This document shows, in pieces, positions 35,501 through 41,957 of a stretch of DNA of 64,000 bases. Each line of letters starts with the position of its first letter. The stretch's first letter is position 1. The DNA is from Escherichia coli (GTDB lineage: Bacteria; Pseudomonadota; Gammaproteobacteria; Enterobacterales; Enterobacteriaceae): the NCBI RefSeq assembly GCF_024298765.1, contig NZ_CP101210.1; one strand, given 5' to 3'. A program made the position numbers.

Positions 35501-38500
35501 GCCTCAATGGCATCAGACGGATTCATACATGTATTCCCGGTGAAAAAAGACAAAACCCCGCGCACCGGAAAGGTGGCGGGGGATTCACGGAGATAATATC
35601 TGTCTGAAATTATTTAGAATGCACCTGGTGCACTGCAAAGGAAAGGCAATATTCCGTTCCTCCTCCTTGTCGTGAATACCCCAGGTATCTCACAATGTAC
35701 ACCGACTTACTCCGGGGCTGCCTGAACCACAAGATTGCTGTAGAATTGCCCCCAATGATTCAGGTCCAAACCAGGAAAATGGATTAAAAATGACAAGTAT
35801 TCAACAACGAGCAGAACTGCACCGCCAGATATGGCAAATTGCCAATGATGTCAGAGGTTCTGTTGACGGATGGGATTTTAAGCAATACGTTCTGGGCGCG
35901 CTTTTCTACCGTTTTATCAGCGAAAATTTTTCCAGCTATATTGAAGCCGGTGATGACAGTATCTGTTATGCGAAACTGGATGACAGCGTAATTACTGATG
36001 ACATTAAAGACGATGCCATCAAAACTAAAGGCTACTTCATCTACCCCAGTCAGCTTTTCTGCAACGTAGCTGCGAAAGCAAATACCAATGACAGACTGAA
36101 TGCAGATTTAAACAGTATCTTCGTTGCTATCGAAAGTTCTGCTTACGGTTACCCTTCAGAAGCTGACATCAAAGGTTTGTTTGCTGATTTCGATACCACC
36201 AGTAACCGCCTGGGTAACACCGTTAAGGATAAAAATGCCCGCCTGGCTGCGGTTCTGAAAGGGGTTGAAGGGTTAAAACTTGGTGACTTCAACGAACATC
36301 AGATTGACCTGTTCGGCGATGCCTATGAGTTCCTGATTTCTAACTATGCGGCGAATGCTGGTAAGTCAGGCGGCGAGTTTTTTACACCGCAGCACGTCTC
36401 CAGGCTGATTGCACAACTGGCTATGCACGGGCAGACCAGCGTTAACAAAATCTACGACCCGGCAGCAGGTTCCGGTTCGCTGTTGTTGCAGGCTAAAAAA
36501 CAGTTTGATGACCATATCATCGAAGAAGGTTTTTTTGGTCAGGAAATCAACCATACGACCTATAACCTGGCGCGTATGAACATGTTTTTGCACAACATCA
36601 ACTACGACAAGTTTGATATCAAGTTGGGCAATACGCTGACTGAGCCGCACTTCAGAGATGAAAAACCGTTTGATGCCATCGTTTCTAACCCGCCGTATTC
36701 GGTGAAATGGATTGGCAGCGATGACCCGACGCTGATTAACGATGAACGTTTTGCCCCGGCTGGCGTCCTGGCCCCCAAATCCAAAGCTGACTTTGCGTTT
36801 GTACTACATGCGCTGAACTATCTTTCGGCCAAAGGTCGTGCTGCGATTGTCTGCTTCCCGGGTATTTTTTACCGTGGCGGCGCAGAGCAGAAAATCCGTC
36901 AATATCTGGTCGACAATAACTATGTCGAAACCGTGATTTCACTGGCACCGAACCTGTTCTTTGGCACCACCATTGCCGTAAACATTCTGGTGCTGTCTAA
37001 ACATAAAACGGATACCAACGTTCAGTTTATTGACGCCAGCGAACTGTTCAAAAAAGAGACTAACAACAATATCCTGACCGATGCCCATATCGAACAGATT
37101 ATGCAGGTATTTGCCAGCAAGGAAGATGTTGCTCATCTGGCAAAATCTGTCGCGTTCGAAGCCGTTGTCGCGAATGACTATAACCTGTCGGTGAGCAGCT
37201 ATGTGGAAGCGAAAGATAACCGCGAAATTATCAATATTGCTGAACTGAATGCAGAGCTGAAAACCACGGTCAGCAAAATCGACCAGTTGCGTAAAGATAT
37301 TGATGCAATTGTGGCTGAAATTGAAGGCTGCGAGGTGCAGAAATGAGCGAGTTGACTTATCTGGAAAAATTGCTGGATGGGGTTAAGGTTGAGTGGCAAA
37401 CACTAGGGAAAGTGCTTAAACGAACTAAAGGCACAAAAATAACCGCTGGGCAGATGAAAGCTCTTCACAAAGATAATGCGCCGCTTAAAATTTTTGCAGG
37501 AGGGAAAACAGTAGCCTTTGTTGACTTTAAAGATATACCAGAGAAAGATATTAATAGAGAGCCATCGATTATTGTTAAATCCAGAGGTATTATCGAATTC
37601 GAGTATTACGATAAACCATTCTCTCACAAAAATGAGATGTGGTCATATCACTCAAATAATGATGCGATAAGCATAAAGTATATTTATTACTTCCTAAAAA
37701 TAAATGAAGGATATTTCCAGAAAATTGGGGGTAAAATGCAAATGCCACAAATTGCAACTCCTGATACAGATAAGTTTGAAGTTCCAATCCCCTGCCCGGA
37801 TAATCCGGAAAAATCCCTTGCCATCCAGTCTGAAATCGTTCGGATTCTGGATAAGTTTACTGCACTTACCGCTGAGCTTACCGCTGAGCTTAATATGCGT
37901 AAAAAACAATACAACTACTATCGCGACCAGTTACTGAGTTTTGAGGATGGTGAGGTTGAGTGGAAGGCGTTAGGGACTATATGCCAAATTGGCGATGGCA
38001 ATCACTCATCAAAGTATCCTAAGGCGAATGAAATGATTGAGCAGGGGATACCCTTCATTCGTGGTACCAATATGGTGAATGGTACAATATGCAATCAAGA
38101 TATGAAGTACATATCTAAAGAAAAACACAATGAACTAAAAAAGGGGCATTTAAAAGCATTTGATGTTTTGATAGCTAATAGGGGAGAGGTTGGGAAGGTA
38201 GCATATGTTCCAGAGGGATATTCTGGATCTAATTTAAACTCCCAGTTAGCATGGCTTAGAGCCAACCCGGAAATTATCATTAATAGATATTTATTTTTCA
38301 TTCTTTGCTCATCAACCATACAGAATAAACTTTCTGGTGAAGGAGGGGCATTACAACAACTTACTATCAAGAACATAAAAAACATTCAGATACCTGTTCC
38401 ATCAATAACCGTTCAGAGCAATATCGTATCTTTTTTGGACAAGTTCGACTCGTTAACCAACTCAATCAGTGAAGGCTTGCCACGTGAAATCGAGTTGCGC

Positions 38501-41500
38501 CAGAAACAATACGAGTACTATCGTGATTTACTGTTCAGTTTCCCAAAACCTGATACTGTCAGTAATTAATTGACCATTGCTACCGACCGGGCCACCTTAA
38601 CACCCGGTCTGTATATAGACTATTTTTTACGCGCCGGAAGTCACTCTTAACGCCCTTCCGGCCCTTGCCAGGCGGCACAAAGGATGCGCTATGACTCATC
38701 AAACACACACCATTGCTGAATCCAATAACTTTATCGTCCTTGATAAGTACATCAAAGCTGAGCAAACAGGCGACAGCTATCAGAGCGAATCGGACCTGGA
38801 ACGGGAACTGATTCAGGACCTGCGAAATCAGGGCTATGAATTTATATCCGTAAAATCTCAGTCAGCGATGCTGGCCAACGTTCGGGAACAGCTTCAGAAC
38901 CTCAATGGTGTGGTGTTTAATGACAGCGAGTGGCGGCGTTTCACGGAGCAGTTTCTGGATAATCCGAGCGATGGCATCCTGGATAAAACCCGTAAAATTC
39001 ATATCGACTACATCTGCGACTTTATTTTTGACGACGGGCGTCTTGAGAACATCTATTTGATAGATAAAAAGAATCTCATGCGCAATAAAGTGCAGATTAT
39101 CCAGCAGTTTGAACAGGCAGGCTCTCATGCTAACCGTTATGACGTCACGATCCTGGTTAATGGTTTACCGCTGGTGCAAATCGAACTAAAAAAACGCGGG
39201 GTGGCGATTCGTGAGGCTTTCAACCAGATACATCGTTACAGTAAAGAGAGTTTTAACAGCGAAAATTCCCTGTTTAAGTATCTGCAACTGTTTGTCATTT
39301 CTAACGGCACCGATACCCGTTACTTTGCCAACACCACAAAGCGCGATAAAAACAGTTTTGACTTCACCATGAACTGGGCGAAATCAGACAACACGCTGAT
39401 TAAAGACCTCAAAGACTTTACCGCTACCTTTTTCCAGAAACATACTCTGCTTAATGTTCTGGTGAACTACAGCGTTTTTGACAGCAGTCAGACGCTACTA
39501 GTGATGCGACCGTACCAGATTGCTGCCACCGAGCGCATTCTGTGGAAAATTAAGAGCTCCTTTACAGCGAAGAACTGGTCAAAACCGGAAAGCGGTGGGT
39601 ATATCTGGCACACTACCGGTTCTGGTAAAACCCTCACCAGCTTTAAAGCCGCGCGTCTGGCAACAGAGCTGGACTTTATTGATAAAGTCTTCTTCGTGGT
39701 CGACAGGAAAGACCTCGATTACCAGACCATGAAGGAATATCAGCGTTTTTCGCCAGACAGCGTCAACGGCTCGGAAAATACCGCAGGCCTTAAACGAAAT
39801 CTGGATAAGGACGATAACAAAATTATCGTCACTACTATTCAGAAACTCAATAACCTGATGAAAGCAGAAAGCGACCTGCCTGTATATAATCAGCAAGTGG
39901 TGTTTATATTTGATGAATGCCACCGCAGCCAGTTTGGAGAAGCGCAGAAAAACCTGAAGAAGAAATTCAAACGCTATTATCAGTTTGGTTTTACCGGCAC
40001 CCCTATTTTCCCGGAAAACGCCTTAGGCTCAGAAACAACCGCCAGCGTATTTGGTCGTGAATTGCATTCGTATGTAATTACCGATGCGATTCGTGACGAA
40101 AAAGTGCTCAAATTCAAGGTGGACTACAACGATGTGCGACCACAGTTTAAGTCTTTAGAGACAGAAACTGACGAGAAAAAACTAAGTGCGGCTGAAAATC
40201 AGCAGGCGTTTCTTCATCCCATGCGTATTCAGGAAATCACGCAATATATTCTGAATAATTTCCGCCAGAAAACCCACCGTACTTTCCCTGGCTCCAAAGG
40301 TTTTAATGCCATGCTGGCAGTAAGCAGCGTGGATGCCGCGAAAGCCTATTACGCGACGTTTAAACGGTTACAAGAGGAAGCCGCTAATAAATCTACTACC
40401 TGTAAACCACTGCGTGTTGCGACAATCTTCTCCTTTGCCGCTAATGAAGAACAAAATGCGATTGGTGAAATATCCGATGAAACTTTTGATACCAGCGCAA
40501 TGGACAGCAGTGCTAAAGAGTTTCTTGACGCTGCAATTCGTGAGTATAACAGCTATTTTAAAACTAACTTCAGCACCGACAGTAAGGGTTTTCAGAACTA
40601 CTATCGTGATTTAGCCCAACGGGTTAAAAATCAGGATATCGATCTGTTAATTGTCGTGGGGATGTTTTTAACCGGTTTCGATGCTCCAACATTGAACACG
40701 CTATTCGTCGATAAAAACTTGCGTTTTCACGGCCTGATGCAGGCATTTTCCCGCACCAACCGTATTTATGATGCAACTAAAACCTTCGGTAATATCGTCA
40801 CTTTCCGCGATCTGGAACGCTCAACCATCGATGCCATAACGCTGTTTGGTGACAAAAACACCAAAAATGTAGTGTTAGAAAAGAGTTATGCAGAGTATAT
40901 GGAAGGCTTTACTGATGCTGCTACTGGTGAAGCTAAGCGCGGCTTTATGGCAGTAGTTGCAGAACTGGAACAACGGTTCCCTGACCCTGCCAGTATTGAA
41001 AGTGAAAAAGAGAAGAAAGACTTCGTTAAACTGTTTGGTGAATACCTGCGTGCCGAGAACATCCTGCAAAACTATGATGAATTTGCCACGCTGAAAGCCC
41101 TGCAACAAATCGATCTTAGCGATCCTGTTGCAGTAGAAAAATTCAAAGCAGAACATTATGTGGATGATGAAAAGCTCGCTGAATTGCAAACAATTCGTCT
41201 CCCTGCTGATCGCAAGATTCAGGATTATCGTTCTGCCTATAACGATATTCGCGACTGGCAGCGCCGTGAGAAAGAAGCTGAGAAAAAAGAGAAATCAACC
41301 ACTGACTGGGATGACGTAGTTTTTGAGGTCGATTTGCTGAAATCTCAGGAAATAAACCTGGATTATATCCTTGGTCTGATTTTCGAGCACAACAGACAAA
41401 ACAAAGGTAAGAGCGAAATGATCGAAGAGGTCAAACGCTTAATTCGTTCAAGCCTGGGGAACCGTGCTAAAGAGGGCCTGGTGGTCGATTTTATTCAGCA

Positions 41501-41957
41501 AACGAACCTGGATGATTTACCGGACAAAGCCAGCATCATTGACGCATTCTTTACGTTTGCTCAACGCGAACAGCAACGTGAAGCAGAAGCCTTGATCAAA
41601 GAAGAAAATCTCAATGAAGAGGCGGCGAAACGCTATATTCGCACATCTTTAAAACGCGAATACGCCACCGAAAATGGCACGGAATTAAACGAGACACTGC
41701 CCAGACTCAGTCCTTTAAATCCGCAATATAAAACGAAAAAACAGACTGTTTTTCAAAAAATTAGCGCATTTATTGAAAAATTTAAGGGGGTGGGTGGAAA
41801 GATTTAGGGAAGGTGCGAATAAGCAGGTCATTTCTTCCCAAGCTGACTCGCTGATTAAAATTTCGCGGATCTGGGCCGATTTTTTTCCCGCAAACACATC
41901 GAATCGGCCTATTTAGGCTATTTTTTCCACCATTTCTGGCGTTATTTCCGGTTTTTA

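Follow-up and report, generated by a model that had tools for sequence, protein, structure and literature searches.

Type I restriction-modification (R-M) genes that end directly at an insertion sequence raise the question of whether a complete system is present or whether modification has been left without restriction. Such a locus lies beside an Ag43 gene on the chromosome of Escherichia coli, and it was analysed here within a stretch of 64,000 nucleotides, referred to as the window. We consider it highly probable (about 0.88) that the locus is a complete type IC (EcoR124-family) R-M system that forms a compact ~6-kb cassette within a CP4-like Ag43 island of the chromosome. The features discussed are collected in Table 1.

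Table 1. Positions of the R-M genes and of neighbouring features in the window
Feature	Position	Strand	Remarks
Antirestriction gene	29715-30200		PF03230 match; within the Ag43 island
Ag43 gene	31437-34358	-	Immediately upstream of the R-M genes
GTPase (yeeP-like) gene	34654-35565	-	Between Ag43 and hsdM
GTPase-hsdM divergent intergenic region	35566-35789		Presumed hsdM-hsdS promoter site
hsdM	35790-37346	+	N6-adenine methyltransferase subunit, 518 aa
hsdS	37343-38569	+	Specificity subunit, 408 aa
Two tandem 12-bp repeats (TAEL-TAEL)	37868-37891	+	HsdS residues 176-183; set target-site spacer length
hsdS-hsdR intergenic region	38570-38690	+	121 bp; probable hsdR control region
hsdR	38691-41807	+	Translocase/endonuclease subunit, 1038 aa, complete
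TTAG, IS5 target tetranucleotide	41804-41807	+	Includes the native hsdR TAG stop
IS5-family element (RefSeq: ISKpn26-like)	41808-43003	-	1196 bp
IS5 transposase ORF	41955-42935		NF033581, 367 bits

Gene content and family membership

The three open reading frames were confirmed on the plus strand, with lengths equal to those annotated across many RefSeq genomes, in agreement with an earlier note on this DNA that had described hsdM, hsdS and hsdR as intact. The overlap of hsdM and hsdS that it reported is borne out as well, and consists of 4 bp, ATGA (cagaaATGAgcg), shared with the hsdM stop codon, by which translation of the two genes is most probably coupled. The Pfam and NCBIfam profile matches are very strong, well above chance level, for all three products: HsdM matches TIGR00497 (648 bits) and has the N6_Mtase and HsdM_N domains, HsdS has two Methylase_S stretches, and HsdR matches TIGR00348 (764 bits). 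Aligned without gaps to EcoR124 HsdM (PDB 7bst_D, residues 3-520), HsdM shows 5 substitutions in 518 residues (~99% identity), with the catalytic NPPY at residue 300; it starts two codons later than the 520-aa EcoR124 protein because the upstream ATG is replaced here by TTA. HsdR aligns with EcoR124I HsdR (PDB 2w00) from residues 1-1038 to 1-1038, again without gaps and with 21 substitutions (~98% identity). Type I systems of the same family typically share more than ~70% similarity (PMC10030836), a level in keeping with the identities of HsdM and HsdR to EcoR124, and the order hsdM-hsdS-hsdR is likewise that of type IC. The assignment to type IC, a family first defined by subunit complementation or antibody cross-reactivity with EcoR124I or EcoDXXI (PMC3874165; PMC3874209), is upheld by these comparisons with the solved EcoR124 proteins. 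The system is already known in kind, being near-identical to the textbook EcoR124I, and is in this respect ordinary.

Integrity of HsdR and retention of restriction

The terminal inverted repeat of IS5 (GGAAGGTGCGAATAAG) starts at 41808 and abuts the hsdR TAG with no base in between, an arrangement that would be expected if the insertion had truncated or altered the C-terminus of HsdR and left modification without restriction. The alignment with EcoR124I nevertheless runs from end to end, KFKGVGGKI closing both proteins, and the EcoR124_C model is covered over its whole length (1-260 of 260), the match reaching residue 1031 of HsdR; HSDR_N, SWI2_SNF2 and T1R_D3-like are each matched in full as well. 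The PD-(D/E)XK nuclease residues D151, E165 and K167 and the SF2 motor motifs (Walker A GSGKT at 310, DECH at 408) are found together with this EcoR124-type C-terminal domain. In relatives free of the insertion, which read AAGATTTAG and then TAGTAACAAAAGG at the hsdR end, the TAG stop (41805-41807) occupies the same position. Longer C-termini, which the earlier note held would indicate truncation, were sought among the homologues, and every one inspected (EcoR124I, EPEC E2348/69, one plasmid copy and several chromosomal copies) is 1038 aa long. The end-to-end alignments and the IS-free relatives rule out a truncation by IS5, a reading that is almost certainly wrong, and the earlier view that HsdR is not truncated is confirmed. 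A different proposition is that three intact genes are not expressed in this strain or do not restrict there, through H-NS silencing, an antirestriction protein or a destabilised hsdR mRNA, which would make the locus mainly a methyltransferase or inert. H-NS silencing is conceivable given that the G+C content of the cassette (37-48%) is below that of its flanks (~55-60%), the same island contains an antirestriction gene, and the loss of the native hsdR 3' flank to IS5 means that mRNA 3'-end formation may differ. We nonetheless regard such inactivity as improbable: hsdR is under strong purifying selection (dN/dS 0.04-0.06), as is hsdM (0.01-0.03 against three other copies), the whole range across genes being 0.01-0.06 between chromosomal and plasmid copies; 211 of 5426 complete E. 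coli genomes retain an identical hsdR-IS5 junction together with an intact hsdR; and restriction of incoming plasmids is known for the EPEC orthologue (PMC2518929). By analogy, the complete R-M system would be active in vivo.

Transcription of hsdR

The earlier note had also described the genes as a single operon, a layout in which the sole promoter would lie upstream of hsdM. Their location on one strand is compatible with this arrangement, and the scan called no canonical terminator within the 121-bp gap between hsdS and hsdR, owing to a T-run that lies several bases past the hairpin, so that read-through from hsdS is possible besides any hsdR promoter. Five copies, however, have this gap with 100% identity, and E2348/69 departs from them at 3 positions, although the synonymous divergence (dS) of the coding sequences between the copies is 0.13-0.20; such near-invariance implies that the gap has a function. 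Within it lie a promoter-like TTAACA-18-TATTTT at 38597-38626, a first hairpin at 38585-38591/38603-38609 and a second at 38633-38640/38655-38662, with a fold z-score of -2.17. In classical type I systems, hsdR is usually transcribed from a separate promoter (PMC3510504; PMC10030836). The single operon is accordingly unsupported, and a sole promoter upstream of hsdM appears unlikely; the gap is probably an hsdR control region, and the most likely layout would be one of two promoters, with that of hsdR in the conserved gap. A promoter/terminator scan of the locus yielded the same number of sites as shuffled sequence and was for this reason used as a pointer only, the promoter matches being weak. 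As for hsdM and hsdS, the GTPase-hsdM intergenic region may have a promoter function, judging from the sequence, and a consensus promoter scan of 35566-35789 called no promoter. The plasmid copy also has the hexamer TAGAAT of 35741-35746, E2348/69 has TAAAAT there, and clear megablast homology to plasmid copies begins only ~22 bp before the hsdM ATG.

Specificity subunit and proposed mechanism

To our knowledge, the S subunit of EcoR124 is the only one of type IC to have been solved. In its N-terminal, central and C-terminal conserved regions, HsdS (WP_089069345.1) is almost the same as this protein (PDB 7bst_A), whereas both target recognition domains (TRDs) diverge from it, which points to a different recognition sequence. 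The type IC frame is present, with conserved regions flanking the two TRDs and TAEL repeats centrally; such tetra-amino-acid repeats in the central region are a type IC trait (PMC3874165; PMC10030836). For EcoR124I and EcoR124II, the spacer is N6 with two repeats and N7 with three (PMC3874165), and by analogy with EcoR124I, which also has two, a non-specific spacer of 6 bp is predicted here. Strain TUM12357 has the same N-terminal TRD and strain ET220 the same C-terminal TRD, and the exact pair occurs in 6 of the 5426 complete genomes, a rarity suggesting that it may define an uncharacterised recognition sequence. Strain MB06102 has the same TRDs but three TAEL repeats, in an HsdS of 412 aa. 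We tentatively put forward, as a possibility with somewhat less than even chances, that the rare TRD pair represents a type IC recognition sequence not yet characterised, and that the two-repeat allele and the three-repeat allele of MB06102 constitute a natural chromosomal N6/N7 pair comparable to EcoR124I and EcoR124II. Neither type IC systems nor the Ag43 island described here are dealt with in a paper on the ST131 methylome.

The mechanism would follow that of EcoR124I. Two HsdM subunits and one HsdS would form an M2S1 methyltransferase, which would introduce N6-adenine methylation into each strand of a bipartite target, each TRD setting one half-site on either side of the predicted spacer. 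Addition of HsdR would give R2M2S1, which, on an unmodified target, would hydrolyse ATP, pull in the flanking DNA and cut at a distance.

The IS5 junction and the island

The terminal repeats of IS5 lie at 41808-41823 and 42988-43003. The tetranucleotide TTAG on the hsdR side faces CAAG (43004-43007) on the far side, so that the element lacks a target-site duplication. IS5 entered at the TTAG that holds the hsdR stop; the coding sequence was thereby spared, while the element took the place of the native 3' flank. This flank (TAGTAACAAAAGGAACAAC), which would mark the reciprocal IS5 junction, was not found in the window with up to 3 mismatches allowed. The junction may have arisen by a deletion or by an inversion. 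The earlier placement of the locus at the edge of the Ag43 island is valid locally, but IS5 and IS1 bound a segment of 7.4 kb with gntP'-ykgGFE-dld-lldP, and island DNA resumes past IS1, at ~51.2 kb. No tRNA gene that could serve as an integration site was found in the window. Positions 31665-61807 are 99.96% identical to strain 2020CK-00188, in which the Ag43 gene is truncated. Identity of the window with strain 13P460A was considered and rejected: identity is 100% over the 6.2-kb locus, but it does not extend to the wider window, 13P460A having no IS21 insertion, other left-hand content and ~10 kb more between the two IS1 copies.

Comparison with known systems and prevalence

The prototype EcoR124I/EcoR124II, encoded by plasmid R124, has the same gene order, but the present locus is in a chromosomal island, and its flanks, 5' of hsdM and 3' of hsdR, show no relation to the plasmid context except over a few tens of bases. 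The system of EPEC E2348/69 is chromosomal too, with products of 518, 408 and 1038 aa, identities of 98.2% for HsdR and 98.5% for HsdM, and a 121-bp gap that is the same bar the substitutions given above. It differs in the TRDs of HsdS, in having three TAEL repeats, in its position in another island, beside a DUF4942 gene and McrBC near fim, and in a 3' flank that resembles the plasmid type and not the IS5 flank found here. Restriction by this system was demonstrated in 2008 by Hobson et al., deletion of its hsdR having raised transformation efficiency (PMC2518929). EcoprrI (prrABD) is likewise a type IC system in an E. coli accessory locus outside the classical plasmids, but it encodes an embedded anticodon nuclease, PrrC, and has three TAEL repeats (PMC3874165), whereas the present locus is devoid of a prrC-like gene and has only 121 bp between hsdS and hsdR. 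Type IA, IB and ID systems such as EcoKI share the three-subunit architecture and the mechanism, but belong to other sequence families, HsdM matching EcoKI HsdM only at E = 3e-17; they have the order hsdR-hsdM-hsdS and lie in the enteric immigration control region, where type IC systems are not found (PMC12707154).

Of the 5426 complete E. coli genomes, 1117 contain at least 80% of the locus; an identical GTPase-hsdM junction is found in 438 genomes, and 4702 of the 5488 places matching the locus are chromosomal. The same chromosomal island setting thus recurs in hundreds of sequenced strains, and the notion that a chromosomal, island-borne type IC system is unusual proved wrong. Chromosomal precedents are EcoprrI (PMC3874165) and EPEC E2348/69 (PMC2518929), and type IC systems occur in 4% of leuX hotspot-37 islands (PMC12707154).

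Significance

The locus is a copy, in working order, of the best-studied type IC enzyme, and its importance beyond annotation is small. It corrects a view of type IC systems as chiefly borne on plasmids: across the complete E. coli genomes covered by the search, most of the matching places are chromosomal. It also provides a further natural case of the diversification of type IC specificity, by swapping of TRDs and by gain or loss of TAEL repeats. In the strains that carry it, the system is predicted to hinder transformation as well as infection by phages, by analogy with what has been shown for EPEC.

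Gene content and relationship to EcoR124

The subunits of the restriction-modification system are unambiguously assigned by Pfam and NCBIfam: HsdM matches TIGR00497 (648 bits), HsdS carries two Methylase_S domains, and HsdR matches TIGR00348 (764 bits) together with HSDR_N, SWI2/SNF2 and T1R_D3-like domains and an EcoR124_C domain that is matched in full (model positions 1-260 of 260) and runs up to residue 1031. PADLOC likewise classes the three proteins as type I M, S and R, and the catalytic signature NPPY of HsdM and the D151/E165/K167, GSGKT and DECH signatures of HsdR are all present. 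The ORF map agrees exactly with the three reading frames of the earlier note, whose description of intact genes is borne out by full ORFs and these domain matches.

HsdR aligns with EcoR124I HsdR (PDB 2w00) from residues 1-1038 to 1-1038, with no gaps and with 21 substitutions as counted from the printed alignments. In the EcoR124 M subunit, residues 3-520 are the counterpart of HsdM 1-518 and differ from it at 5 positions, two N-terminal residues being absent from HsdM because the upstream ATG of the plasmid reads TTA here. HsdS here is almost identical to EcoR124 HsdS in its three conserved regions (N-terminal, central and C-terminal), whereas both target-recognition domains (TRDs) diverge; the central region contains two TAEL repeats (residues 176-183). 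This near-identity, with the domains and motifs, upholds the type IC assignment, and the system shows every feature of that class that is assessable from sequence.

Features of the locus and its surroundings (window coordinates)
Feature	Position	Strand	Description
Antirestriction-family gene	29715-30200	-	PF03230, E = 1e-35
hsdM	35790-37346	+	518 aa
hsdS	37343-38569	+	408 aa
hsdS-hsdR gap	38570-38690		121 bp
hsdR	38691-41807	+	1038 aa
WP_306417990.1	41782-41973	-	63 aa, RefSeq 'hypothetical protein'
IS5-family element	41808-43003		terminal repeats GGAAGGTGCGAATAAG and GGAAGGTGCGAACAAG
IS5 with flanking TTAG and CAAG	41804-43007		
Metabolic segment	43004-51224		7.4 kb, IS5 to IS1; surroundings island-type
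gntP fragment	43185-43598		
IS1	50456-51224		island content resumes beyond
GmrSD-like pair	55464-58953	+	GmrSD_N + DUF7834; GmrSD_N + GmrSD_C

The HsdR terminus and the IS5 junction

The first base of the IS5-family element lies directly 3' of the hsdR TAG. Three IS-free chromosomal relatives have the same sequence up to this point (...AAGATTTAG, then TAGTAACAAAAGG or CAGTAACAAAAGG), so the stop codon is native, and the C-terminus KFKGVGGKI is that of EcoR124I. The earlier view that HsdR is probably not truncated is corroborated by this stop and by the end-to-end alignment with EcoR124I; longer homologues, which would have pointed to truncation, were looked for, and HsdR has 1038 aa in every homologue examined. 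The TTAG containing the stop fits YTAR, the target preference of IS5. The tetranucleotides on either side of the element differ (left TTAG, right CAAG), so that there is no target-site duplication, and the window does not contain the native sequence 3' of hsdR; IS5 is therefore associated with a rearrangement replacing the original downstream DNA. Beyond the element now lie the C-terminal third of a gene for a GntP-family permease and, after it, ykgG/F/E-like (lutCBA) genes, dld and a gene for a lactate permease. The hsdR stop-IS5-gntP fusion is an IS-associated rearrangement, its exact hsdR-IS5 junction being common to 211 of the 5426 complete E. coli genomes on which our prevalence counts are based. 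The RefSeq protein WP_306417990.1 overlaps both the 3' end of hsdR and the adjoining end of IS5; this junction-spanning ORF is probably spurious.

Transcriptional organisation

The hsdM stop and hsdS start share an ATGA, the overlap that the earlier note had described, and these two genes are clearly coupled. It is not obvious that hsdR belongs to the same transcription unit, as that note's single operon would require. The gap preceding hsdR is identical in five copies, one of them on a plasmid, and shows 3 differences in the enteropathogenic strain E2348/69; since dS between copies is 0.13-0.20 in the flanking genes, neutral drift would give approximately 15-20 changes. The intergenic region is therefore conserved above the flanking coding sequence, which would imply a constrained regulatory element. 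It contains two hairpins (fold z-score -2.2) and a promoter-like site, TTAACA-18-TATTTT. According to reviews, hsdM and hsdS have one common promoter and hsdR usually its own (PMC3510504, PMC10030836). In view of this conservation, these elements and the reviews, we consider two transcription units more likely, perhaps with a degree of read-through, and the single operon is unsupported.

Island context

Genes for an Ag43/Cah autotransporter and a GTPase precede the locus, and the IS5-family transposase gene follows it. Its placement at the island edge holds locally but not overall, as island DNA resumes past IS1 with an inovirus-Gp2/YagK-like gene, IS3, a methylase gene fragment and two GmrSD-like genes. 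In E. coli MB06102, YagK-like and IS3 material lies just ~2.5 kb downstream of hsdR, which indicates that the hsd cassette is internal to a mosaic island; the IS5/IS1-bounded segment has replaced ancestral spacer DNA. Over 31665-61807, the window shares 99.96% identity with strain 2020CK-00188. In E. coli 13P460A, the ~10 kb that follow the IS5/IS1-bounded segment (about 51.2-61.5 kb) are missing, as recombination between IS1 copies would explain.

Other defence-related genes were observed. The type IC system shares its island with the antirestriction-family gene. The GmrSD-like genes, adjacent and overlapping, adjoin the N6-methylase gene fragment and probably form a type IV (modification-dependent) restriction pair. 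Beside the island integrase gene, 13P460A (L003 9189-21390) carries a P4-like satellite with Drt3a/Drt3b defence reverse transcriptases; in the window, this position is taken instead by MFS transporter, hydrolase, LysR-family and SDR genes.

Specificity

The HsdS alignments reveal the shuffling of modules that is classic for type IC systems: the N-terminal TRD is common to strain TUM12357 and the C-terminal TRD to strain ET220. The two TRDs are rarely found in exactly this combination (6/5426 genomes); two of the six copies are on plasmids, one of them frameshifted. The 120-kb plasmid NZ_CP062914.1 (L005 6024-12040) carries a frameshifted hsdS allele, 99.2% identical, along with metG, apbC, rnhA, a pol III theta gene and a phage-type adenine methyltransferase gene, contents that suggest a phage-plasmid. 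MB06102 HsdS (L004 7778-9016; 412 aa) has both TRDs as here and a third TAEL repeat. Two repeats give an N6 spacer in EcoR124I and three give N7 in EcoR124II (PMC3874165); by analogy with this rule, the spacer of the bipartite target is predicted to be 6 bp long here and 7 bp long in MB06102. MB06102 offers a natural, chromosomal parallel to the switch in spacer length between EcoR124I and EcoR124II.

Prevalence and function

The 6.2-kb locus is present over 80% or more of its length in 1117/5426 complete genomes, and the GTPase-hsdM junction in 438/5426; in PLSDB, 615 plasmids reach the same coverage of the locus. RefSeq annotates the hsd genes, with 'EcoR124 family' in some records, EcoprrI (PMC3874165) and E2348/69 (PMC2518929) are documented chromosomal type IC systems, and across Enterobacteriaceae 4% of leuX hotspot-37 islands contain a type IC system (PMC12707154). 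From these counts, annotations and precedents, the locus is already known and its chromosomal, island-borne position typical. The suggestion that a chromosomal type IC system is unusual is contradicted by the literature and by the chromosomal share of all matching places (4702/5488); the earlier observation is confirmed and its interpretation partly supported.

The values of dN/dS are 0.04-0.06 for hsdR and 0.01-0.03 for hsdM, relative to the E2348/69, plasmid and ET220 copies. The chromosomal system of E2348/69 has genes of equal length, with HsdR 98.2% and HsdM 98.5% identical to the copy here, and deletion of its hsdR raises plasmid transformation efficiency (PMC2518929). By analogy with E2348/69, the system described here should be active.
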